From Candidatus Krumholzibacteriia bacterium (GTDB taxonomy: Bacteria; Krumholzibacteriota; Krumholzibacteriia; JAJRXK01): a stretch of DNA of 64,000 bases. Below the pieces are notes generated by a model, which was given only the letters and a program-made list of their open reading frames with translations, was not told where the DNA came from and searched no databases. Shown in pieces: positions 373 through 12,849 of the stretch. The stretch is from positions 896,001 through 960,000 of the forward strand of contig JBGPIA010000001.1 of assembly GCA_041484665.1 (NCBI GenBank). The letters are read 5' to 3'. The position numbers and the translations under genes are program-made. Position 1 is the stretch's first letter, and the number at the start of each line of letters is the position of its first letter.

Positions 373-627
373 TCAACGGTCCAGCTGCGGTGTAAGGCGC
401 GCCCGCTCGAGCACGGCGCGGGTCGTGGTGTTCAGCCCCGCAAAGTCCGCGGCGCGCTCCAGGGCCCGTTGCTGCGTTTGCACTTCGAACAGCTCCGCGC
501 GCTTTGCCAACGCGAGATCCCACCACGCCCCGGAAGGCTGTACGTGTCCGCCGGCATCGCGGCGGCGAAACGCGCCGAGCGCGGCCTCCAGCAGCAGCTC
601 GTGAGCGCCGGATGGCGTGCGGCTCAT
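373..627 (-). CDS. small hypothetical protein (84 aa), candidate soluble anti-sigma or partner protein
   Basis: ATG 627-625 overlaps the sigma factor stop (ATGA); globular-looking sequence MSRTPSGAHELLLEAALGAFRRRD...AWWDL...GLNTTTRAVLER. Confidence 0.7.
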   Translation of the reverse strand: MSRTPSGAHELLLEAALGAFRRRDAGGHVQPSGAWWDLALAKRAELFEVQTQQRALERAADFAGLNTTTRAVLERARLTPQLDR

Positions 628-1403
628 GCCAGGAGCTCCTCGAGCGGGACGCCGTGGCGGCGTAGGCATTCGGCCACGAGCTTGCGCGCCCGCACCACGT
701 TTTGCAGGAAGGTGTTCGTTTGCATGCCCACAGCGGCCGCCAGGTCGCGGTCCGCGTTGCGCCCGGCATCGGCGAGCCGGGCCGCGAGCGCCGCGCGCGG
801 TGGTCGTGGCAGTTTCTCGATGCACGCGCGGATGATCCGGCCCAGTGACGGATCGGGGACGGGGGCGGGATCCGAGCTCGGCTGCGGCGCACGCTCGAGC
901 TGCTCGAGCTCCAGCGGAGCGAAGATCCGCAAGCGCTTGGCCTCCTGCAGGGCGAGGTTTCGTACGACGCGCATCGCATAGCGCAAGCTGGCGTTCTCAC
1001 CCTGCAGATCTCGCGTTCGAGCGAGCACCCACATGCGCAGCAGCCCTTCCTGCAGCACGGCCTCCACGTCGACGCCGCGAGCGAACGGCCGCAGGCTCGC
1101 GCGCAGCGGCGGCTCCGCTGCGGCGACCCAGGTGGCGAAGGCGTCCACGTCACCCTGCCCGGCGCGGCGGTAGGCCGCGTCGACGCCATCCGTGGGCGCC
1201 GCGCTGTCGGGCGCGCCGCCGGGCGCGGCGGCAGGCGCCGACGCAGGGGCCAGACCCGAGCTGGCTCCGCTGTCAGACCGGGCGCCGGCCGCGGCGTCAG
1301 GTGCGGCGGCGGCCGCGGACGCGGACGCAGCGCCGACCGGCTGGCGCTCAGGGCCGGCCGGCCGGGCAGCGCGCTCGCGGCGGTTGGAACGTGCGCCTCG
1401 CAT
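624..1403 (-). CDS. ECF-type RNA polymerase sigma factor with Ala/Pro-rich N-terminal extension
   Basis: Region-2-like 'DVEAVLQEGLLRMW...YAMRVVRNLALQEAKR' and region-4-like 'CIEKLPRPPRAAL...DLAAAVGMQTNTFLQNVVRARKLVAECL'; ATG overlaps the upstream TGA (TGATG). Confidence 0.8.
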   Translation of the reverse strand: MRGARSNRRERAARPAGPERQPVGAASASAAAAAPDAAAGARSDSGASSGLAPASAPAAAPGGAPDSAAPTDGVDAAYRRAGQGDVDAFATWVAAAEPPLRASLRPFARGVDVEAVLQEGLLRMWVLARTRDLQGENASLRYAMRVVRNLALQEAKRLRIFAPLELEQLERAPQPSSDPAPVPDPSLGRIIRACIEKLPRPPRAALAARLADAGRNADRDLAAAVGMQTNTFLQNVVRARKLVAECLRRHGVPLEELLA

Positions 1404-3898
1404 CAGTCCACGGTCTCCGGGTGGAGCGGGATCTCGACCATGATCACGGCGGACCGGTCCGCCGATCGGACCCATACCAACACCTTAACCACGCGCCAGG
1501 GGCTACCGTCGGCGGTGCGCAGCACCAGCCGCAGCGTCAGCCCAGCCGCGTACGGCCCGGGACGGGTGCTGAGCGGATCCACGGTCGCCTGCAACTCGAC
1601 CCGCGCTGCGGTGTCGGCGCGGAACGCCTCCGCGGCGATCGTGCCAGTTGTGGCCAGCTCGAAGCCGTCCCACGGCGACTCGAACTCGAGCACCAGGAGA
1701 TCACCGTCCACACGCAGGCACCGTGCAGCCACGATGACCGCCCCCGGGGGCGCCGGCCCTGTTCGTCGGGCACCTGCGAGCTTGCCGAGCACGCCCGCCA
1801 GTCCTGGAATTGCGCGAGCGCTCATCCGGGTTGGCGGGGGCGGAGCCGAGATGTGCCCGAGGACGCTCTCGAGCATTCGACCGGATTCCACGATCCCGAC
1901 GGAAGTGGCGCAGTCCACCTCGAGCTTGCGCAATGCCGGGAGCCCGACACCGGCCAGCCCCACGCCCTCGGCGCTCACACCGGCGGGCAGCTCCACTGCC
2001 AGGCGCTGGCGGCGGCGTGGCTCGAGCGGATCCACGGTGGGTGTCTCCGCGATGGCGACTAGACTGGTTTCTCGCGTGACGATGCGATGGCGCAGCCCAA
2101 GCTGCTCGATCCGCTGAGGGATCCCCACGAAGTCGCCGGAGGCGCGAGGCTCCTCGTCCAGCATCCACGGCGTCGCCGCCGCTGTGAGATGCATCTCCTC
2201 ATCAGCCACTGCCTCGCGGCCGAACGCGGCTCCCAGCGGCAGGTCGGTGTGGGGCCACGGTGACGGGCCATCCGCCGGAGCGATCTGTACGGTCGTCGTC
2301 CAGGAATCGCCGGAGCCCAGCTCACCCCCGAGCTCGACGGTGCCCCCTGCGGGCGCCAGCTCCAGCAGGGCCAAGAGGGGCTGGCCGGCCAGGACGTCGC
2401 GCGGCCGCGCCGGCGCCTGCGCGAGCACCGCCGTGCCCCCGATGTGGAGGTCGGTGAGCAGGGGAGCCACCGTTGCGCCAAGCAGGCGCTGGCCGCCCGC
2501 CGCAAGCTCCATCTCGCTGCCCAAGAGGACCTCGACGCCGCGGCCGGCACGCGAAGCACCCTGCGTCAGCGTGCGGTTGGGCGCCGCGCCGATGCCCACC
2601 GTGTGCAGCCGCGCGCCAGCGGGCAGGTCGCGCAGCACGTGGGCGATCACCTCGTCCTCGAACCCGATGTAGCCGTCGGTGATCAGGACCACCTGGCGCT
2701 GCGAGCCAGGCCGCAGCGGACACAGCGCGTCCCGGATGGCGTGCGCCATCTCGGTCCCCCCGCCGGCGTGCAGCTTGCGCAGAGCCTCGCTCGCCTTGTT
2801 GAGGTTGGGTGGTGACGACTCGCAGGGCCCCTTCACCAGCGGCTTGCGCTCCGTCGCGAAGGCGATGAGCTCGAACCGGTCGCGCGGGGTGAGGCTGCGC
2901 AACAGCTGCTCGGCGAGCTGCTTCGCGAGCTCCAGCTGGTGTCCGTCCATCGACCCGCTGCAATCCAACAGCAGCGTGAGATCGCGCGCCATGACCGGTT
3001 GCGGCTGCGCCGGCGGCGTAAGGGTCAACAGCGCGTAGCGGCCGTTATCGCCGGGCAGCCCGCCGCCCTCGACCAGGCGGACGCCGACCGACGCCTCCGC
3101 CGTCTGCCACGTGACCACCAAATCGCGATCCAAGCGCGCGGGCTCGGCCAGCGCGAGCCGGCAGCCGCCGTCGGGACCGGCCTCCACGTGGAGGTCGTGG
3201 GAGGGCGACCGCGGAGCGATCCATTGTGGCGTCCCATCCGCCAACAGCAGGTCGAGCGTCAGGCGGACCGGCGTGCCGTTCGCGTCGGCGCGGTCGGCAT
3301 CGAGACGTTGCGCATCCTGCACGCGTCCGGGCGCACCCTCGAAGCGCACACCTACCACGGTGGGGAACCGGTATTCCCAGCGGCCGGCCAGCGCGCCCGT
3401 GCCGCGCTCGATGCACGTGCCGCGCTTCGCCTGCTCGCCCGAAGGCACTCCGTCCGCGCTCGCCCTGGGATGGAACGCCAGCGGGTGCAGCACGTCGATC
3501 TCTACCTCCACGGGCGTTGCGGGCGGCAGGCAGCCCAGGCTCTGGGTGAAGGTGTCGGCGCGGTCCTGCTCGAGCAACCCGGCGGTGCGACCCTCCTCGA
3601 GTGCCTTCCGGTAGGCCTTCCTGGCCTCCATCCGCGACTCGATCTGGCCGGTGATGACCGTCTCGCCCATGCGGATCGTGTAGCCGAACATCGACCCGTC
3701 GGCCGGCAACGCCAGCGTGTAGAGCACCTCGAGCGGCTCGCCGTAGGGGTTGTCGTAGCTCTGGCAGAACGTGGTTCTCGCGAGCCCTCCCGCGGCGCGG
3801 GCGCGGATGGCGGCGCGCTTGAGTGGAAAGGCCCGGCCGTCCACGGCCAGCAGGCCCGTAGGGCGCTGGATCAAGGCTTGGAATGCATTGGCGGGCAT
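1403..3898 (-). CDS. VIT + von Willebrand factor A domain protein
   Basis: N-terminal VIT domain (QSYDNPYGEPLEVLYTLALP...FTQSLGCLPP); vWA MIDAS motif DCSGSM, GGGTE, LITDG, TVGIG; no signal peptide. Confidence 0.9.
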   Translation of the reverse strand: MPANAFQALIQRPTGLLAVDGRAFPLKRAAIRARAAGGLARTTFCQSYDNPYGEPLEVLYTLALPADGSMFGYTIRMGETVITGQIESRMEARKAYRKALEEGRTAGLLEQDRADTFTQSLGCLPPATPVEVEIDVLHPLAFHPRASADGVPSGEQAKRGTCIERGTGALAGRWEYRFPTVVGVRFEGAPGRVQDAQRLDADRADANGTPVRLTLDLLLADGTPQWIAPRSPSHDLHVEAGPDGGCRLALAEPARLDRDLVVTWQTAEASVGVRLVEGGGLPGDNGRYALLTLTPPAQPQPVMARDLTLLLDCSGSMDGHQLELAKQLAEQLLRSLTPRDRFELIAFATERKPLVKGPCESSPPNLNKASEALRKLHAGGGTEMAHAIRDALCPLRPGSQRQVVLITDGYIGFEDEVIAHVLRDLPAGARLHTVGIGAAPNRTLTQGASRAGRGVEVLLGSEMELAAGGQRLLGATVAPLLTDLHIGGTAVLAQAPARPRDVLAGQPLLALLELAPAGGTVELGGELGSGDSWTTTVQIAPADGPSPWPHTDLPLGAAFGREAVADEEMHLTAAATPWMLDEEPRASGDFVGIPQRIEQLGLRHRIVTRETSLVAIAETPTVDPLEPRRRQRLAVELPAGVSAEGVGLAGVGLPALRKLEVDCATSVGIVESGRMLESVLGHISAPPPPTRMSARAIPGLAGVLGKLAGARRTGPAPPGAVIVAARCLRVDGDLLVLEFESPWDGFELATTGTIAAEAFRADTAARVELQATVDPLSTRPGPYAAGLTLRLVLRTADGSPWRVVKVLVWVRSADRSAVIMVEIPLHPETVD

Positions 3899-4165: not shown

Positions 4166-5539
4166 CTACTGGCCGCCGGGGGCTTGCGGTTGCTGCATCG
4201 CCTCGAGCTTCTTCTTCAGCGCCGTGATGGCGTCCTCCGACCGCTGGCCCGGTGGCAGGCTCTCGGCCAGACGGAGCGCCTCCTCCAGCGTCTTGCGCGC
4301 CGCAGCGGTATCGCCGCGTCCGACGTAGCTGTTGACGCGCGTCTGCAGGATCCTCAGCTGGCGCGGGCCGTAGGCCTTGGCGAGCGCCCGATCGTTGGCT
4401 GCCAGCGCTTCGTCCCATTTCTTCATGGCGTTGTAGGCCGTTGCCAGCCGCGCCGGCGGATTGTAATCATCTGGGAGATCGCGCTCGGACTGCTCCAGCA
4501 TGGGGACCGCCCGCTCGGGCTGCCCCAGCTCGATGTACGCGTCGAGTCGGTGCGGATCGTAGACCGCGCGCTCATCGGCCGTCTTCGCCTTGGCCGCTTC
4601 CCCATCCAGGAACGCCGACCATGCCGCAGCAACCTGCTTCGCGCCTGCCACGTCGTTGGCATCCTGCCGCGCGCTCAGCAGCGCGATGTAGGTTCCCGAC
4701 CGGTCGTCGGCCGCAATGGGAAGAGAGAGGTCGGCCACCACCGCGCGCGCGTCCGCTTCCAGCGCGGCGACCAGCCGCGGGCGCATCGTGTCGTCGGCCG
4801 CAAGATTGAGGGCACAGTCCAGACCGCTACCGGCCACGTTGGCCGCCGACGGCGTGGTGCGCACCCTCGGGAAGGCTGCGAGGGCGAGCTGCGCGCCCGC
4901 CGCGTTCTGATCGGTGGCCGAAAGGGCGAACAGCAGCGCGTCGACGGTCCGCGCGTAGTGCGGCCAGTCCTTCGGCGCTTTCGCCAGTGCGTCGCGGTAG
5001 GCGGTGGCGGCCTCGGCGTTGCTGCCCGCTCCGTAGAGCTGGTCGGCGCGCGCCAGGACCTGGTCTGCCCCCAAGCCCTTGGTCCTGCCCTTGTTCTTGA
5101 AGGCAAGCTGCGCCTCATCGAGGAGCTTGTGGAGCTGCGGCACTGTCGCTCCACCTACCCAGCGCAGCACGACCTTCTCGTCGTTGGGGTCGACGACGAG
5201 GTACGTCGGGAGAGCCTCGACGGGGAACTTCTGTTTGACCGAAGCGTTCTCACGCTTCTCGGTGTTGATCTCCAGCCAGACGAACCGCCCGGCCTGCTCC
5301 TTGAGGGACTCATCCGTGAAGACGAAGGCCCTCATCGAGCGGCAGGTGTGTCACCACGGGGCCCAGCTGTCGATGAAGATCGGCACCTTCTTGGCCTTCG
5401 CCTGCGCGAGCGCTCCGGCGTAGTCGTCCTGCACCCAGGGCAGGACCGCCGGTTTGGACGGCGCGCTCGCAGCAACAGCCATAGAAGCGAAGAACGCCAG
5501 CGTCACCGGCAGAGCGGTGATGGCAGCTAGCGTTTTCAT
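4166..5539 (-). CDS. secreted thioredoxin-family + TPR protein, probable selenoprotein (UxxC, Sec at codon 63)
   Basis: Track ORFs 5351..5740 and 4166..5335 are in one frame, separated by a single TGA (5353-5351) in IFIDSWAPW-U-HTCRSM; signal peptide from ATG 5539; cis-Pro loop EALPT; C-terminal TPR-like helices. Confidence 0.82.
5293..5346 (-). promoter_or_regulatory. candidate SECIS-like stem-loop directly 3' of the in-frame UGA
   Basis: Hand fold: CCUGC/GCAGG outer arm, UGAGGG/CCCUCA stem and a short apical helix, starting 4 nt after UGA. No G in the apical loop in my fold, so it is non-canonical. Confidence 0.55.
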
Positions 5540-5785
5540 GCCGCAAAGGTACCAGATCACCCCGGAGGCGGCCAGCGGACACTGGCCGCCGGACACTTGC
5601 TGCCGCCGCTGGAGCGGCCGACGACCCCCTGGGAAACCTTCCCGCCTTCGAGTTTGTCGCGGGTGCGGTCGCGGACCGATCTGGTATCCTGAGCTCGCGT
5701 GCGCTGGCGGGAGCCACCGAGCTTGCCGTGCGGCGGTCATCGACGCTCGATGCGTCCGCAGGACATGAAAGGAGCGGCCGGCCCC

Positions 5786-8131
5786 ATGGCCCGCCTGGTG
5801 CCATATCCGTTCGGACTGCTCGTCACCCGCATGATCCGCGAGCTGGAGCAGAGCCAGTCAGCCTTCGACCTGCCGGTCACGAAGTTCTTCCGTCCGCTTG
5901 CGGACAAAGACCTTTCGGTGACGTTCCAGGGCCAGCGCGCCTCCTCGCCGCTGGGGCCGGCTGCCGGCCCCCACACCCAGATGGCGCAGAACCTGGCGCT
6001 CTCGTGGCTGGCCGGCTCGCGCATCCTCGAGCTCAAGACCGTCCAGATCCTCGACCAGCTGGTCATCCCACGGCCGTGCATCGACATGCGCACGGTCGGC
6101 TTCAATGCCGAGTGGTCGCAGGAGCTGACCCTGGAAGAGTCGCTGGAGGAGTACGTCAAGGGTGCTATGCTGATCGAGATCCTGCGCTTTGGGGGCTTCC
6201 TGCCGGCCGTGGCCGACGGCAGCGAGACGCTCTTCGACATGAGCGTCGGCTACGATTACGCGGGCATCAGCAGCCAGCGAGTGCGTGCGTTCATCCACGG
6301 GATGCGCAACGCCCGCCCGCTGGTCGACCGCCTGCGTTCCGAGATCCCGCCGCACTGGAAGCAGCTGCGCGACCTCGACTTCCCCACTCGGTTGTCCGAC
6401 AACATCACACTCAGCACGTTCCACGGCTGCCCACCCGGCGAGATCGAGCGGATCGTCGACTTCCTGCTGCGGGAGCTGGGGCTGAGCTGCGTGATCAAGC
6501 TCAACCCCATGCTGCTGGGCAAGGAGGAGACGCGCCGGCTGCTGCACGACGTGATGGGCTATCGCGCGCTGCGCGCGCCGGATGCGGCCTTCGACCGCGA
6601 CCTGACCTGGGAGCAGGCAGTGGAGATCGTGCCGCGGCTGGGTGCGACGGCACAGACGTGCGGCCTGCACCTGGGAGTGAAGTTCTCCAACACGCTGGTC
6701 GTGGAGAACGACGCGAGCTTCCTGCCGGCCGAGGCGCGCGAGGTATATCTGTCGGGCCCGCCGTTGCACGTACTGGCGATGAGCCTCGTGCTGCGGCTGC
6801 GGCGCGAGTTCGGCGACCGCTTCCCCATCTCGTTCTCGGCGGGGATCGACCGCAGCAACTTCCCCGATGCGGCAGCGTTGGGGCTCGTGCCGATCACGGT
6901 GTGCACCGATCTGCTGAAGACGGGCGGCTACGGACGGCTGCCGGCCTATTATCGCGAGCTCGCGGTGCGCATGGATGCCGTCGGCGCCTGTACCGTCGAT
7001 GATTTCGTCCTGCGCGCGCACGGACAGACGGAGGCGGCGCTGTTGCAGTGCGGGCTGGCCGACGATGATCCCGCCCGCCACCGCTGCCTCGACGCCCTCA
7101 CCGCGGCCGGTGATGTGCGCGCGGCTGCAGTTGGCGACCCGCGCGCGGCTGCGGGTGGCGACCTGCGGACGGCTGCTGCTGGGAGCCTGCCGGCGGCCGC
7201 AGGGAGCGACCTGCACGCTGCCGCGGGCGACGCTCTCTACGCGCGGTGGGTCTCGCAAGCGCGGCTGCTGAACACCGAGCGCTACGTGCACGCCATCACC
7301 GAGCACGCCCATGATCCCGACTCGCACTACGGCCGCGCCCACAACGCGCGCGCGCCGCGCAAGATCGGCCGCCACCTGCAGCTGTTCGATTGCATCAGCT
7401 GCGACAAGTGCATCCCCGTCTGCCCCAACGACGCCATGTTCGCCCTCCGCCCAGAGCGCGGCGTGCTGGCCGTCGTCATGTTGCGACGCGCCGACGGCGG
7501 ATGGCGGTGGGATCGCGAGGGCAGCCTTGAGCTGCACGAGGAGCACCAGATCGCAACCTTCGTCGACTTCTGCAATGATTGCGGCAACTGCGACGTCTTC
7601 TGCCCCGAGGATGGAGGCCCCTACCGGGTGAAGCCCCGTTTCTTCGGCAGCCGGGAGGGCTGGGAGCACGGGCGGCCGTTGGATGGCCTGTTCGTGCAGC
7701 GGCGCGGCGGCCGCGACCTTGTGCTGGGCCGATTCGGCGGGGAGGAGTATCGTCTGGAGGTTTCCGCTGGGTGGCTCGAGTATTCTGGCGTCGGCTTCCA
7801 TGTCCGGTTCCAGGAGTCGAGCCCGCAGGCGACGCTCCAGGTCCAGGGCAAGGGCGAATCAGGCCGGCTCCACCCAGTGCCGATCCCCGACGAGGTGGAC
7901 CTGACCTGGTGCTACATCATGGACCGCATCCGCCAGGGGATCCTGGACCCCACGCACGTGAACTACGTGAACACCACCAGCACCACAAGCACCACCAGCG
8001 TCACCGGCGCCACGGGCGCCACCGAGGCCACCGGGGCCAACACTGCCTTGGACGCGAGCCATGCCGCCGACACGGCTGACACCCGCAACACACCCCACAC
8101 GCCCAACACCCCCAACACTCCACCCCGCTGA
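5786..8131 (+). CDS. ygfK: YgfK-like (putative selenate reductase family) FMN/Fe-S oxidoreductase, shortened form
   Basis: GPAAGPHTQMAQN, ELKTVQ, PRPCID, TLSTFHGCPPGEIERI, KLNP, LSGPPL, TVCTDLLKTGGY motifs; C-terminal CxxCxxCxxxCP ferredoxin motifs (CISCDKCIPVCP, CNDCGNCDVFCP). Confidence 0.85.
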   Translation: MARLVPYPFGLLVTRMIRELEQSQSAFDLPVTKFFRPLADKDLSVTFQGQRASSPLGPAAGPHTQMAQNLALSWLAGSRILELKTVQILDQLVIPRPCIDMRTVGFNAEWSQELTLEESLEEYVKGAMLIEILRFGGFLPAVADGSETLFDMSVGYDYAGISSQRVRAFIHGMRNARPLVDRLRSEIPPHWKQLRDLDFPTRLSDNITLSTFHGCPPGEIERIVDFLLRELGLSCVIKLNPMLLGKEETRRLLHDVMGYRALRAPDAAFDRDLTWEQAVEIVPRLGATAQTCGLHLGVKFSNTLVVENDASFLPAEAREVYLSGPPLHVLAMSLVLRLRREFGDRFPISFSAGIDRSNFPDAAALGLVPITVCTDLLKTGGYGRLPAYYRELAVRMDAVGACTVDDFVLRAHGQTEAALLQCGLADDDPARHRCLDALTAAGDVRAAAVGDPRAAAGGDLRTAAAGSLPAAAGSDLHAAAGDALYARWVSQARLLNTERYVHAITEHAHDPDSHYGRAHNARAPRKIGRHLQLFDCISCDKCIPVCPNDAMFALRPERGVLAVVMLRRADGGWRWDREGSLELHEEHQIATFVDFCNDCGNCDVFCPEDGGPYRVKPRFFGSREGWEHGRPLDGLFVQRRGGRDLVLGRFGGEEYRLEVSAGWLEYSGVGFHVRFQESSPQATLQVQGKGESGRLHPVPIPDEVDLTWCYIMDRIRQGILDPTHVNYVNTTSTTSTTSVTGATGATEATGANTALDASHAADTADTRNTPHTPNTPNTPPR
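7109..7231 (+). repeat. about 5 degenerate in-frame 24-bp repeats (GDxRAAAx) inside ygfK
   Basis: Translation GDVRAAAV GDPRAAAG GDLRTAAA GSLPAAAG SDLHAAAG. Confidence 0.7.
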
Positions 8132-8156
8132 ACCGGATCCTCGCGAGGCTGCACGC

Positions 8157-9326
8157 ATGAGCTCCAACGATCGCGCCCGCAAGCTCCTCGATTGCATCGA
8201 CGGCCGCGCGCTCGCAGCGCTGCACGGGCGCAGCATGATGCTGACGCAGGATTGGTCCCGCGCCGAGCTGGATGTCGTCTGCGCGCTGGCAGATGTATTC
8301 GATACACTCGACCGTGCCGGCGTGCCGGCGCCGCTCTTCCCGCAGCAGCTGTTCTACGCCCTGTTCTTCGACAACTCCACGCGCACCAAGTCGAGCTGGG
8401 CAGGAGCGGCGGCGCGCTTGGGCGCGCAACCGTTCGTGGCCGACGCCGCAAGCACCCAGCTGGCGCACGGCGAGACCGCGCAGGAGACGGGCGCCATGCT
8501 GGGCATGAACTCCCACGCCCTGGGCATCCGCCACGACCTGATCCTCGGCGAGGGCAACCGGTTCATGCGCGAAGCGGCAGCGGGAATCGCCGAGTACTTG
8601 CGCGCGCACGGCGAGAGCCGCGTAGTCCCGGTGGTCAACCTCCAGTGCGACGTCGACCATCCCACGCAGACGCTGGCCGACCTGTGCTGGCTGCACGAGC
8701 GGTTCCCCGATGGCCTGGCCGGCCGGACCGTCGCGGTGAGCTGGGCGTATTCACCCAGCTACGCCAAGCCGCTCTCGGTGCCGCAGGGGCTGATCATGCT
8801 GCTCACCCGCTTCGGCATGCACGTGCGCTTGGCGCATCCTCCGGGGTACGGCTTGATGCCCGACTGCCTGCAGGCTGCGGCGCGCAACGCCAAGGAGCAC
8901 GGCGGGAGCTTCAGCGAGTCCGGCAGCATGGACGAGGCGTTCTCCGGCGCCGATATCGTGTACCCCAAGAGCTGGGGTCCCTACGACCTCATGTTCGACC
9001 GCGTGGAGGCCAACCGCCGCCGCAATACCGCCCGCATGAAGGAGATCGAGAGCGCGGCGCTATCGCGCAACAAGCAGCATGTCGACTGGATCTGCGACGA
9101 GCGGCGCATGCGGCTCACCCGCGGGGGCGGCGCGCTCTACATGCACTGCCTGCCCGCCGACATCGGCGCGGAGGTCAGCGCCGGCGTCATGGACCAACAC
9201 CGCATCGACGTTGCGCGCGAGGCGAACAAGAAGGTCTACGTCATCATGGCGCTGCTGGCCGTCGCCAAGGAGCCCCAGCTGCGCGAGCGGCTCGCAGCCT
9301 GCATCGCGGCAGTGTCTGGCCGGTGA
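8157..9326 (+). CDS. ygeW: YgeW-type (knotted) carbamoyltransferase
   Basis: DNSTRT, QLAHGET, NLQCDVDHPTQ, SWAYSPSYAKPLSVPQG, DIVYPKSW, LYMHCLPADI. Confidence 0.9.
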   Translation: MSSNDRARKLLDCIDGRALAALHGRSMMLTQDWSRAELDVVCALADVFDTLDRAGVPAPLFPQQLFYALFFDNSTRTKSSWAGAAARLGAQPFVADAASTQLAHGETAQETGAMLGMNSHALGIRHDLILGEGNRFMREAAAGIAEYLRAHGESRVVPVVNLQCDVDHPTQTLADLCWLHERFPDGLAGRTVAVSWAYSPSYAKPLSVPQGLIMLLTRFGMHVRLAHPPGYGLMPDCLQAAARNAKEHGGSFSESGSMDEAFSGADIVYPKSWGPYDLMFDRVEANRRRNTARMKEIESAALSRNKQHVDWICDERRMRLTRGGGALYMHCLPADIGAEVSAGVMDQHRIDVAREANKKVYVIMALLAVAKEPQLRERLAACIAAVSGR

Positions 9327-9442
9327 CGGCGCACCATCGACGATGATCCGACGCTTGCGGAGCAACGAGGGACGGACGCCCCGGGTCCAGCAACGAATCG
9401 ACGCTCCCGCTCAACGAAGCACCAACGCCCCAGGGCCAACGA

Positions 9443-9485
9443 AGTACCGACGACAGTACCGAGACATCACAGTACCGAGACATCA
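9443..9485 (+). repeat. 16-bp tandem duplication (ACAGTACCGAGACATC x2) plus a partial copy, just before the ygeY RBS
   Basis: Copies at 9453-9468 and 9469-9484; AGTACCGA also at 9443-9450; AAGGAG follows. Confidence 0.8.
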
Positions 9486-9498
9486 AGGAGATTGCCCG

Positions 9499-11085
9499 AT
9501 GGACGCCAAGATCGCACAGCTGGCCGAGAACTATCGCCCCCTTGCCGTCACGATCCTCAAGGAGGCCATTCGCGTCCCCGCCGACTTCGTCGACCGCCCC
9601 AAGGACGATGGTGGCGACCCTCTGTGCGGGCTGTCGAACCACGAACGGCCGCGGCTGGAGTACCTGCGGCGGATGATCCTGGAGATCGGGGCGGCGGAGC
9701 GCGCCGAGGACGTCCGCTACGACGCGTTCGGCAACCTGCGCTGGACCGTGCGCGACCGCAACGACCGCATCCCCGACGCCCAGAAGAGCGTGATCCTCTG
9801 GGACGGCCACACCGACACCGTGCGCGCGCTGCGCGACCGCTGGCGCGATGCCATCGGCGGCGGAATCGACGCCTACGACGGGTTGAAGGACTGGTCGAAG
9901 GTCGACCGCTCGTTCCTGCGCCGCGAGCTGGGCTATCTGCCGCCCGAGGACGAGTGGCAGAACCTGGTATTCGGGCGCGGCGCTGCCGACCAGCTCAGCG
10001 GCGTCATCTCCCAGATCGTCGCCACCAAGATCCTGCTGGAGACGCGTGGCGAGGGCTCGCTGCGCGGGGCGATCGTCGACAGCGTCGCGACCGTGGCCGA
10101 GGAGGACAACGACGGCGGGGGGTCGATGTTCATCATGCGCAAGGAGCTCGCCGGCGCCGCGCCGGAGCGCATCCCCGACGTCGTCATCCTCACGGAGGGC
10201 ACCGGCTGCTCGCAGCAGGGCGCCGTGGGAATCTACCGCGGGCAGCGCGGGCGCATGCAAATCGAGGTCGAAGTGATCGGCAAGAGCTGTCACGGCAGCA
10301 TGCCCTGGGAAGGGCGCAACCCGCTGGAGTACGGCGCGCCGATCATCGCCGAGGCCGCCGATCGTTACGCCCGCGGCGAGGGCTTCGCCAAGGACGCGTT
10401 CTTGGGCCCGGGCACGCGCACGGCGAGCTGGGCCGTGCTGGACAGCCCCAGCGATTGCGCGGTTCCCGAGCGCTTCACCTTCCGCTTCGACCGCCGCCTG
10501 ACGGCCGGCGAGGAGCCAGAGCAGGCGCGTCAGGACTTCGAGCGCATGACCACCGTGGCGCGGGCGCGCGAGGCGGGGCTGACGGTGAATGTGCGGGTGC
10601 CGTTCTACAGCGAGAAGACCTGGTGCGGCTACACGCCTGGAAACCCGCAGGTCTACCCCGGGTGGGTGACGCCGGAGGACCACCCCGCGATCGTCGCGGC
10701 AGTCGATGCTTACCAGCGCGTCGTGTCGCCGAAGATCGCAGCGGGGGGTGGCGGGGACGGCGCCTCGCGTAGCAGGGAGGGGGCCGCCCGTGGTGCGTCG
10801 GGCGGCACGGCGGGCGCGTTGCGCAAGGAGCCGCGCGTGGCCCGCTGGATCTTCTCCACCGATGGCGTCGGCTTCCCGCTGCGCCGCGATGAGACGCCGT
10901 TCGATCTGGCGCCGTCCAAACGCTGGGTCGGCGTGGGCCCGTATTGGCACCCGGCGATGTTCGGAGTCGGCCCGGGGATCGAGCAGAACACCCACAAGAT
11001 CGGCGAGTGCGTCGACGCGAGGGAGATCTCGGCGGTGATCGCGCTCCTGGCGCGGTTCCCCAGCGCGTACCGCGCGCACCTGTGA
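9499..11085 (+). CDS. ygeY: YgeY-like M20-family hydrolase (selenium metabolism-linked)
   Basis: DGHTDTV, GRGAADQ, VAEEDNDG, IYRGQRGRMQI, SCHGSMP, DRRLTAGE, WIFSTDGV; RBS AAGGAG; follows ygeW. Confidence 0.85.
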   Translation: MDAKIAQLAENYRPLAVTILKEAIRVPADFVDRPKDDGGDPLCGLSNHERPRLEYLRRMILEIGAAERAEDVRYDAFGNLRWTVRDRNDRIPDAQKSVILWDGHTDTVRALRDRWRDAIGGGIDAYDGLKDWSKVDRSFLRRELGYLPPEDEWQNLVFGRGAADQLSGVISQIVATKILLETRGEGSLRGAIVDSVATVAEEDNDGGGSMFIMRKELAGAAPERIPDVVILTEGTGCSQQGAVGIYRGQRGRMQIEVEVIGKSCHGSMPWEGRNPLEYGAPIIAEAADRYARGEGFAKDAFLGPGTRTASWAVLDSPSDCAVPERFTFRFDRRLTAGEEPEQARQDFERMTTVARAREAGLTVNVRVPFYSEKTWCGYTPGNPQVYPGWVTPEDHPAIVAAVDAYQRVVSPKIAAGGGGDGASRSREGAARGASGGTAGALRKEPRVARWIFSTDGVGFPLRRDETPFDLAPSKRWVGVGPYWHPAMFGVGPGIEQNTHKIGECVDAREISAVIALLARFPSAYRAHL

Positions 11086-11316
11086 ACGCGCGCTGATCGT
11101 TCCCAGAGAGTGAGCGAGCCCTCGCCAGTGCCGCCTGGGGGCCGCGCGGCGGTGCGTCGAGGATTCCCGCCCGCCTTGCCATCGTTCCCCGTTTACCGCT
11201 AAGATCATTGCCACGCCGTCCGCCGGGGCCCCCCTGCATCGACTTCCCGGCCGATCGTCGCGCGGCCACGCGTGCGCGTGTGGCTGACCCTGGACCATGC
11301 AGGAGGATCTGACATT

Positions 11317-12849
11317 ATGTCACGCACCCAGCATGTCCGGTCTGTCTCGTTCGCGTCGGGCGTCGCGATTGCAGCGCTCGCTGCAAGTCCGACCGCAGCG
11401 GCAGCGGACGCCCCGAGAGCCGCCGTACTGCGAGTCGCCACCACCCCCGCCCCGCCTCGCGCGCTGCTTCGCGTGCTGCTTCGCGTGCTGCTCTGCGTAC
11501 TGCTCGGCGCGCTCCTGTGCGCACCGATCGCGGCAACTCGCCAGGCTGCGGCCAGCTGCGCGGAGGTCGACGTGGACGGCTCCAAGTGGTGCGGCGGCAT
11601 GATCGCCTTCTATTGGGGCGCCGGCCTCAACGGCAACTGCTCCATCCTGAGCAACCGCCAGTGCTTCTTGTGGCGCAACGCCGTCCGCGCCGCCGTCGAC
11701 GAATGGAACCTGCTGTCCTTCTCCACGTTCAACGCGCCGTTCGAGCTGGTGGAGTCGGGGACGCTGGTGGACGGCGTCCCGCCCGACTTCGGAGTGGTGT
11801 TCACCTTCGGCGATCTGCAGCTGGGGATCTACGCCAACTGCACCCCCGGCGCCGGCTCGACGGGCGAGTCGGGCATGTTCGGGGGCACGGTCTCGCCGGG
11901 CCTGCACTTCGCCTGGACCGAGACCGACTACACCATCCCAGACAACGTGGACATCGCCGTGATCCATCGGGCAGCGGTCCATATCAACGGCGACACACCG
12001 TGGACCGACGGCGTCGGCGGCGGCGTCGATCGCCTGACGGTCGCTCGACACGAGATCGGCCACGTGCTCGGACTGGGTCACGCGTTCGCCGGTACCTGCT
12101 TGATGCAGGAGTTCGGGGGCTGCAGCGAGACCAACGACGTCGACGGCAGCGCCATCGACGCCATGATCTGCCTGTACGGCTCCATCGACGCTGTGAACTG
12201 CGCGCCGCAATTCGGTTTGATCACCTACACCGCCAACGATGGCTCCCCGGGCTTCCTCATCGGATCGTGCGACTGCACGGGCAGCTGCCCGGCGGCCAAG
12301 GCGCAGAAGGTGCCCCATACCTATGAGCTCGCGCTGAGCGAGGCGGGCGGCCCCTACTCGGTCTTCGCGACGCTGCAGCAGAGCGATCTGGTGAATCGCA
12401 GCTATGTCCACCACTTCGCCCAATCGTACAGCTCGGCGCGGATCCGGCTGCGCGTCTACGACGGGGCAACGTTGTTGGACGAAACGCTCAGCAAGTTCGC
12501 GATCGCGATCCAGGCCACGGCCACCGCAGTCGTGCCGCTGCCGCCGCGCGACGCACTCGCACTGAGCGTCGCGCCCAACCCGTTCGCCGGCCAGACGGGG
12601 ATCTCGTTCGATCTGGGCACCGCTGCAGCCGTGGAGGCGTTGGTTTTCGACGCGCGCGGGCGGCGCGTGGCCACCCTGCATGACGGCGTGCTCCAGGCCG
12701 GGCACCAGTTCTTGACCTGGAACGGACGCCTCGCCGGCGGCGCGCGCGCGGCGAGCGGGGTGTACCGGTGCGTCGTGCGCACGGGCGATCCGGCGCAGGG
12801 CATCGCCCCGGGCACCGAGGCATCCGCACAGCTCGTGCTGCTCCACTGA
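11317..12849 (+). CDS. secreted matrixin/M10-like zinc metallopeptidase with C-terminal FlgD Ig-like domain
   Basis: HEIGHVLGLGH zinc motif with Met-turn (CLM); C-terminal APNPFAGQT...FDARGRRVATL...WNGR...ASGVY; start uncertain. Confidence 0.8.
   Translation: MSRTQHVRSVSFASGVAIAALAASPTAAAADAPRAAVLRVATTPAPPRALLRVLLRVLLCVLLGALLCAPIAATRQAAASCAEVDVDGSKWCGGMIAFYWGAGLNGNCSILSNRQCFLWRNAVRAAVDEWNLLSFSTFNAPFELVESGTLVDGVPPDFGVVFTFGDLQLGIYANCTPGAGSTGESGMFGGTVSPGLHFAWTETDYTIPDNVDIAVIHRAAVHINGDTPWTDGVGGGVDRLTVARHEIGHVLGLGHAFAGTCLMQEFGGCSETNDVDGSAIDAMICLYGSIDAVNCAPQFGLITYTANDGSPGFLIGSCDCTGSCPAAKAQKVPHTYELALSEAGGPYSVFATLQQSDLVNRSYVHHFAQSYSSARIRLRVYDGATLLDETLSKFAIAIQATATAVVPLPPRDALALSVAPNPFAGQTGISFDLGTAAAVEALVFDARGRRVATLHDGVLQAGHQFLTWNGRLAGGARAASGVYRCVVRTGDPAQGIAPGTEASAQLVLLH

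Follow-up and report, generated by a model that had tools for sequence, protein, structure and literature searches.

The window analysed here, a stretch of 64,000 nucleotides from a Candidatus Krumholzibacteriia bacterium, carries on its minus strand the gene of a predicted exported thioredoxin(UHTC)-TPR selenoprotein (4166..5539; 457 aa plus a TAG stop). The translation of window:4166-5539:- is MKTLAAITALPV...IDSWAPW*HTCRSMRAF...PGGQ* and contains a single internal TGA. This TGA is codon 63 (5351..5353, minus strand), occupies the first position of U-H-T-C and is predicted to encode selenocysteine (Sec). When read with table 11, the gene falls into an upstream ORF stopping at the TGA and a 389-aa ORF starting from Met69. 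The initial annotation had joined the two ORFs through W-A-P-W-[TGA]-H-T-C into one protein of 457 aa, which was confirmed, and the strand, not given there, is minus. Coding signal and homology were observed on either side of the UGA, and the gene has the third-best score among the 46 motif candidates of the genome. A first genome-wide TGA screen was too strict and missed the gene; it was recovered by the motif-based screen. The initial annotation had also asked whether TGC or TGT stands in place of the TGA. The contigs of three other runs, X4, X5 and X6 (contigs, not raw reads), none of the three marked as a possible source, cross the TGA with no other letter, which makes an assembly error unlikely; none of the listed own-sequence pieces of run X7 covers the position. 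A -10-like hexamer, TACCTT, is located 6 nt before the ATG (5546..5551, minus strand) and is likely part of a leaderless promoter. Of 188 starts chosen in the family, 130 have TAnnnT at 5-8 nt ahead of the ATG, compared with 13 of 1333 arbitrary ATGs of the window. This placement suggests a leaderless, stand-alone transcription of the Trx-TPR gene.

The protein begins with a predicted Sec-pathway signal peptide (residues ~1-23; 5471..5539, minus strand), which has a basic N-terminus and a hydrophobic segment (KD10 2.19) and whose cleavage site was placed by eye. The hydrophobic N-terminal stretch is present in the query and in 70 of the 72 full-length matches, the model has low pLDDT at residues 1-20, and a lipobox-like motif occurs in 25 of the 188 family starts. 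The signal peptide is followed by a thioredoxin domain of the DsbD-gamma/DsbH/Trx_7-like type (residues ~32-148; 5096..5446, minus strand) with an invariant Pro111 in A-L-P-T, and by a TPR-like alpha-solenoid of 16 helices (residues ~155-450; 4190..5077, minus strand) with the invariant residues D278, S281, D328, R331, D358, P361, R364 and R393. Both domains were assigned by Pfam, the structural model and structure matches. Pfam Thioredoxin_7 matched residues 36-118 with 48.7 bits (cut-off 27), and TPR_12, TPR_14 and TPR_19 were also over cut-off. None of 17 NCBIfam matches was over cut-off; the selenoprotein models NF041199 (14.3/300 bits), NF045694 (35.1/805) and TIGR02187 (13.7/185) remained under it. 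The AlphaFold2 model of the Cys-substituted protein, computed from a 109-row alignment (pLDDT 93.8, pTM 0.89), places the Trx domain at ~32-148 and the 16 helices at ~158-449. It has a Trx fold in which the active-site helix begins with the C/UxxC and the conserved P111 is at the cis-Pro loop position. The Trx domain matched the structures 2lst (Z 16.4, rmsd 1.9, 126 aligned), 3f9u (Z 16.2) and DsbD-gamma 1vrs (Z 14.6, rmsd 2.2, 111 aligned), and by sequence 2kuc (E 2e-18) and DsbD-gamma (E 2e-10). The helical part matched the TPR solenoids of LGN/Pins (LGN TPR 4wng: Z 17.4, rmsd 5.5, 289 aligned). The earlier proposal of a UxxC thioredoxin-TPR selenoprotein with a signal-peptide-like N-terminus was supported. 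C242 was considered as a third catalytic Cys and rejected as not essential (Cys in 81 of 109, Ala in 24).

[quoted passage not shown] In the genome (completeness 93.65%), selA (454.9 bits), selB (353.3 bits), selD (333 bits) and tRNA-Sec (73 bits) were all found over the curated cut-offs. The SelB is ordinary in length and motifs, and the genome's own selD also contains a TGA. The motif screen gave seven other in-frame TGA selenoprotein candidates in this genome (G000), at C15:47701-, C3:161254-, C10:74967+, C12:96799-, C12:553-, C1:335895- and C4:50029-, all with G-loop hairpins at 17-22 nt. Apart from SelD, their labels were taken from motifs, and we take them to be a PxxxTxxU peroxiredoxin, a CxxU SelW-like protein, a GrdB/PrdB-like UxxC protein, two [AS]PT-U-PxC proteins and an UshA-like protein. 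An open frame of 487 codons lies upstream of the C12:553 candidate, which may be a fusion. A TGA-bearing formate dehydrogenase alpha subunit was not found in the genome (9 matches, none with a stop and none over cut-off). selA was present in 61 of 61 genomes in the class of G000 and in 199 of 201 in the class of G067, and these uncultured lineages are therefore Sec users throughout. Against this background, a dependence of the family on selA-positive hosts was uninformative and was dropped as a candidate.

The distribution of Sec and Cys forms was analysed in several samples. A full-length orthologue was found in 6 of 60 relatives and has the TGA at codon 63 in all 6, so that the TGA is kept in the close relatives to which the initial annotation had pointed. 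The homologue column, also named there, holds only TGA or Cys codons in 87 of 87 rows: 9 with TGA (the window, a pair of duplicates and six others), 51 with TGC and 27 with TGT, counts that are not frequencies because the 87-locus scan used a Cys-bearing pattern. In every locus in which the motif was found, in the 87-locus set and in both held-out sets, the column is exclusively TGA or TGC/TGT. A TGA-bearing pattern gave at least 120 metagenome loci, all in the same protein context; 11 of the 120 were left out (five too short for the hairpin H2 described below, two duplicates, one shorter than 132 nt and three whose frames are broken). The gene was present in 89 of 201 genomes of a class-wide sample centred on a Thermoanaerobaculia genome, and 79 of 91 matches had a TGA; the site was checked in 30 loci of the Thermoanaerobaculia-centred sample, with 23 TGA and 7 Cys. 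A phylum-wide sample around a myxobacterial genome had the gene in 121 of 251. The pooled set consists of 168 TGA and 100 Cys distinct segments. The tallies take in three unpublished genomes (G114, G279 and G283; the pooled sequence L262 is from G114), and no conclusion depends on them. In the Myxococcota loci L318-L351 the active-site dipeptide of the Sec form varies (U-P-T-C, U-K-T-C, U-Y-S-C, U-P-S-C) with H2 fixed, and several myxobacterial genomes have 2-4 Cys paralogues.

In the databases the Sec forms appear truncated. Among the best 120 protein matches, 48 start at M[RK]A[FY]VF, six codons past the site, and the other 72 are full-length Cys forms, which bears out the expectation that standard annotation misses the gene. 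The named truncated entries (10 clusters) go by TPR protein, thioredoxin family protein or thiol reductase thioredoxin, and none is labelled a selenoprotein.

It was of interest whether the Cys forms come from hosts that had lost the Sec machinery. This was ruled out: each of the 56 carrier genomes analysed has selA, among them all 49 with Cys forms. The Sec/Cys changes are therefore changes of the gene. A tree was calculated from the 141 proteins (65 Sec, 76 Cys) that extend 330 residues or more beyond the site, and the 30 residues over both hairpins were dropped. The Sec and Cys forms are interleaved on this tree, with at least 18 Sec/Cys changes. A Ca. Krumholzibacteriota record is among the nearest named relatives on it and points to this phylum. 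The many Cys clades nested among Sec forms suggest a repeated loss of Sec to Cys; the tree comes from a quick IQ-TREE search and is unrooted, and therefore the direction of change is not proven.

The RNA following the UGA was analysed for a SECIS element. A hairpin termed H2 extends from +58 to +76 (5275..5293, minus strand) and consists of GCCGGGC, the loop GGUUC (5286-5282) and GUCUGGC. From its pairing and its loop G it is predicted to be the SelB-binding SECIS. The 5-nt loop is closed by a stem of 7-8 bp (-11.6 kcal/mol), and the distance from the UGA to the loop is 64 nt. H2 was defined by the pairs 58-76 to 64-70 with the loop RGUUY at +65 to +69; the search pattern left everything outside -12 to +11 around the UGA free. 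One copy of the H2 motif is present in the genome. Within 117 TGA and 78 Cys distinct segments, the synonymous sites +60, +63, +66 and +72 are fixed in the TGA forms and freely variable in the Cys forms, and all 7 H2 pairs are possible in 117 of 117 TGA compared with 5 of 78 Cys forms. In the pooled set, 7 of 7 pairs plus the loop G were present in 167 of 168 TGA but only 4 of 100 Cys forms. The exception, L331, has a one-codon deletion that puts H2 three bases earlier, at a spacing of 61 nt. In 166 of 168 TGA forms the loop reads RGUUY, and G+66 is present in all TGA forms with H2 in register.

Since the first 117 TGA sequences served to define the pairs of H1 and H2, independence from that choice is limited to the held-out sets. 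In the first of them H2 was found in 23 of 23 TGA (19 new) and 1 of 7 Cys forms. In the second, from Myxococcota, it was present in 31 of 32 new TGA forms, the last being shifted by one codon, and in 0 of 21 new Cys forms; 40 stretches had been picked mostly for a TGA, and one of them gave no motif. Six readable loci among the 11 left out all have H2, one shifted by a base. As to codon choice, 134 of 134 TGA forms have GGA/GGG for the Gly at +61, although GGC makes up 55% of the genome's Gly codons, and Arg at +64 is CGG in 82 of 82, as against CGC for Arg at +10 in 112 of 136. In L318, L319 and L352 the conserved Trp codon is changed to CGG, which converts a G-U pair of H2 into G-C. The initial annotation had called for a covariation test after the UGA. 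H2 is near-invariant and almost without compensatory change, and its fold therefore rests on complementarity and codon choice. For the window gene taken alone, H2 would be expected in 1.8% of synonymous recodings, and therefore the case depends on the family. Rfam gave only 4 matches, all with E >1 and far below the gathering score. The four Cys forms with an intact H2 plus loop G (L081, L087, L103 and L264) are likely recent Sec-to-Cys changes with a remnant SECIS.

The region between the UGA and H2 is occupied by a long hairpin, H1 (+11 to +55; 5296..5340, minus strand), which has no G in the first two loop positions. From fold and covariation it is predicted to be a spacer that loops out ~45 nt. 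With +1 to +9 held single-stranded, the long H1 and H2 were both predicted in 167 of 167 TGA forms, where H1 begins between +10 and +13 and ends between +52 and +56, and in 5 of 100 Cys forms. The covariation asked for was found here: pair 21-45 swaps from G-C to C-G in the TGA forms, with G45 in 27 of 28 that have C21 (p 5e-14, uncorrected for kinship), and covariation of this pair is absent in the Cys forms (p 0.41). A constraint at the level of the RNA was thus observed on both hairpins and exclusively in TGA forms. H1 is less strict than H2, with a register that varies between clades and 4 of 5 core pairs kept in 30 of 76 Cys forms. When the shortest path from the UGA to the H2 loop was calculated with each base pair counted as one step, the median was 22 in 167 TGA forms (10th-90th percentile 21-22), compared with the 17-22 nt spacing in the seven other candidates of the genome. 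On the tree, 12 independent pairs on well-supported branches were compared. H2 follows Sec in 10.7 and goes against it in 0 (sign test, p ~0.001), and H1 follows in 8.1, again with 0 against (p ~0.008).

The stem-loop reported soon after the UGA in the initial annotation was correct in that a 74-nt fold gives a long stem a few nt past the UGA (z -2.87), but it does so only because the cut truncates the second hairpin. Likewise, the missing apical G is true of H1, but the SECIS-like hairpin is H2, whose loop has the G. The suggestion of a lineage-specific SECIS was not upheld. The seven other candidates of the genome and three distant thioredoxin-helical Sec paralogues of the class (L040, L042 and L048, G-loop ~21 nt past the UGA) have ordinary G-loop hairpins at 17-22 nt, which makes the displaced SECIS a trait of the gene family and not of the lineage.

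H2 was compared with the published bacterial SECIS model. In PMC13188914, the model has a loop of 3-9 nt, a stem of 4-16 bp and an MFE of -7.5 kcal/mol or lower, and one of the first two loop bases is a G, mostly with G or U next to it (N-G-[G/U]-N-N). The distance from the UGA to the apical loop is set at 16-37 nt, and some bacterial elements are said not to fit the model; a short spacing is also stated in the parts of PMC10778597 and PMC8659212 at hand. Like the canonical SECIS (E. coli fdhF type; Fig. 2A of the same part of PMC13188914), H2 lies within the coding region 3' of the UGA. It shares the stem of 7-8 bp, the 5-nt loop, the G as first or second loop base with G/U after it, and first and last loop bases that are often pairable. 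Unlike the canonical element, it has a spacing of 64 nt instead of 16-37 and a second long hairpin in +11 to +55, and the usual window has no rule-conforming hairpin in 135 of 136 TGA forms. In a simplified scan with contiguous stems, which is not the published program, G-loop hairpins of -7.5 kcal/mol or lower were found at 16-37 nt in 1 of 136 TGA and 1 of 79 Cys forms; the 60-66 nt range gave one in 136 of 136 TGA and 14 of 79 Cys forms.

We propose that the in-frame UGA almost certainly encodes selenocysteine at the thioredoxin active site of an intact single gene, judged from the sequence. H2 probably serves as the SelB site, as its loop motif indicates, with H1 as the spacer. With the UGA in the A site, the ribosome would cover about the first 10 nt, H1 would remain folded at the mRNA entry and H2 would follow 2 nt behind the base of H1, so that the path from the UGA to GGUUC would be ~21-22 steps. 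SelB bound to the G-loop hairpin H2 would then recode the UGA as Sec. PMC4513850 describes a ribosome that occludes ~11 nt and opens the lower stem of the SECIS; the start of H1 at +10 to +13 agrees with this.

Other readings of the site were weighed. A true stop, whether a nonsense mutation, an error of assembly or part of a conserved split gene that restarts at Met69, or a TGA read as Cys or Trp, is very remote. The invariant Met69 six codons downstream, which is used by gene callers, would agree with a restart, but Met69 is just as invariant in the Cys forms and a product restarting there would have neither signal peptide nor active site. Moreover, the TGA occurs in several phyla only at the catalytic Cys column, it is the commonest stop of the genome (1039 of 1694 long ORFs), and the contigs of the three other runs agree on it. 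If Sec is inserted, SelB might instead bind the top of H1 through an atypical loop without a G, and H2 would be accessory by ribosome pausing, hindered termination or mRNA stabilisation. At ~+32 the H1 loop does fall within the usual window, the TGA forms have the more stable H1 (median -21.8 compared with -15.1 kcal/mol in Cys forms), and bacterial SECIS elements outside the model are mentioned in PMC13188914. Yet the H1 loop is variable and has no TGA-specific fixed base, the H2 loop fits the published pattern, and this genome has G loops in its other candidates and an ordinary SelB; we regard binding to H1 as improbable. It is also quite improbable that H2 is the SECIS and H1 is unneeded as a spacer, being a by-product or an efficiency tuner, with SelB reaching the A site via a flexible mRNA loop like the distal SECIS of archaea and eukaryotes. 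The differing register of H1 between clades and its partial retention in many Cys forms would be in line with such a loop; against it, the long H1 is predicted with narrow limits in every one of the 167 TGA forms and pair 21-45 is swapped in TGA forms only.

The role of the protein was considered by comparison with known thioredoxin-fold proteins. The thioredoxin-fold UxxC selenoproteins compared were Trx PF00085, thiol:disulfide interchange PF13098, thiol-disulfide isomerase-like cd02966, DsbA/DsbG-like and SaoT. They have in common with the Trx-TPR family the Trx fold, Sec as the first residue of the CxxC, many Cys homologues and repeated Sec/Cys exchange, but the Trx-TPR protein has in addition a signal peptide and a 300-residue TPR solenoid. 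The Trx7/PDZ (seleno)protein NF041199 and TsoB NF045694 likewise have a Trx_7/DsbD-gamma-like domain fused to other domains; they differ in the Sec position, CxxU and UxxxxU respectively, and in the partner domains. For the Trx domain, the best matches in sequence and in structure were to DsbD-gamma, DsbH and the Bacteroides 2KUC periplasmic reductases (Z 14.4-14.6); unlike these, the Trx-TPR protein is encoded by a free-standing gene and has Sec and the TPR extension. CnoX/YbbN (PDB 3QOU, 3QDN) also has an N-terminal thioredoxin domain followed by a TPR domain, and the Caulobacter CnoX has an active CxxC. CnoX, however, works in the cytoplasm with GroEL and has ~285 aa and 10 TPR helices, whereas the Trx-TPR protein is predicted to be exported and has 16 helices and Sec.

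After export, the TPR solenoid would bind envelope proteins, whose disulfides or oxidised cysteines would be attacked by the selenolate, and DsbD would re-reduce the site once oxidised; a DsbD-type membrane domain is encoded in the genome. By analogy, the protein would be a periplasmic counterpart of the CxxC-type chaperedoxin CnoX and not a CnoX member. The fold matches, the DsbD-type gene and the signal-like N-terminus favour a periplasmic DsbD-fed reductase that grips its clients by the TPR domain, and we give this reductive client-binding role about an even chance. A somewhat less probable option is that the selenoprotein is mainly a holdase chaperone or an oxidase/isomerase in envelope folding. 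It draws on the CnoX-like Trx and TPR architecture, on Foldseek, which ranked CnoX/YbbN second and third (TM 0.20/0.31, rmsd 24-25, 14-16% identity), on the JGI label 'thioredoxin-like negative regulator of GroEL' of several homologues, and on the holdase and redox roles joined in CnoX proteins (PMC8129009). It is opposed by the nearest solved structures by sequence, which are 2kuc and DsbD-gamma with CnoX absent from the best 60, and by a separate TPR_20 gene of CnoX size elsewhere in the genome (C8); TPR_20 gave no match in the query at E 0.1. In addition, GroEL is cytoplasmic. The preferred reading as a whole, a Trx-TPR gene in which the UGA is Sec, H2 recodes via SelB, H1 restores the distance and the product is a predicted periplasmic client-holding redox protein, is in our judgement probable.

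The family was searched for in the literature. The 2026 table of 119 selenoprotein families, in the available part of PMC13188914, does not contain the Trx-TPR protein, and TPR is unmentioned in the part of PMC2398784 at hand. The available part of PMC1794560 lists 'thioredoxin (2)' for Anaeromyxobacter dehalogenans, and single family members may have been counted earlier under such a generic name. A literature search of main texts, mostly from outside the subscription journals, gave no account of the Trx-TPR family or of a two-hairpin bacterial SECIS. The two-hairpin SECIS is probably kept in Acidobacteriota, Myxococcota and the class of the window genome, in what would be an uncatalogued family of exported thioredoxin-TPR selenoproteins.

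A short, fixed distance between the UGA and the SECIS is the textbook difference of bacterial from archaeal and eukaryotic Sec insertion, and it serves as a prediction filter for bacterial selenoproteins. The hairpins described here likely represent a second, two-hairpin class of SECIS in bacteria, for which SelB would measure the distance through the folded RNA and not along the sequence. As the spacing exception is kept in 168 sequences of several phyla and lost with the change from Sec to Cys, it offers a test of whether SelB reads the linear or the folded distance. If this is true, rule-based SECIS searches miss two-hairpin genes by design, which suggests that other selenoproteins have been missed likewise. 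For recombinant selenoproteins, the arrangement is a possible way to shift the SelB-binding loop off the residues adjoining Sec. The inventory gains an envelope redox selenoprotein that is common and routinely cut short, a useful addition though no surprise.

Further observations were made on related and neighbouring genes. L040, L042 and L048 (genomes G035, G031 and G010, same class) belong to a second exported thioredoxin-plus-helical-repeat family with an in-frame TGA, which has the motif DF[FY]xxW-U-[PS]SC and ~30% identity over the Trx part; about ten more weak matches with one TGA among the relatives may belong to it. No conserved operon or neighbourhood was observed across lineages among 161 loci, and thus no pointer to clients. 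At 5768-11085 (plus strand) the window contains divergent ygfK-like, ygeW-like and ygeY-like genes, a selenium-linked cluster, all under the NCBIfam cut-offs. A link to this cluster was rejected, as it lies beside the gene in no other of 237 loci, 160 of which have at least 3 kb. Downstream on the same strand as the Trx-TPR gene (624-3898, minus strand) a VIT/vWA-type protein (TIGR03788-like, 282 bits, under cut-off) is followed by an ECF-like sigma factor. At 11272-12849 (plus strand) a predicted secreted protein is encoded that has a HEIGHVLGLGH metalloprotease-type motif and, as judged by eye, a C-terminal sorting-signal-like domain.
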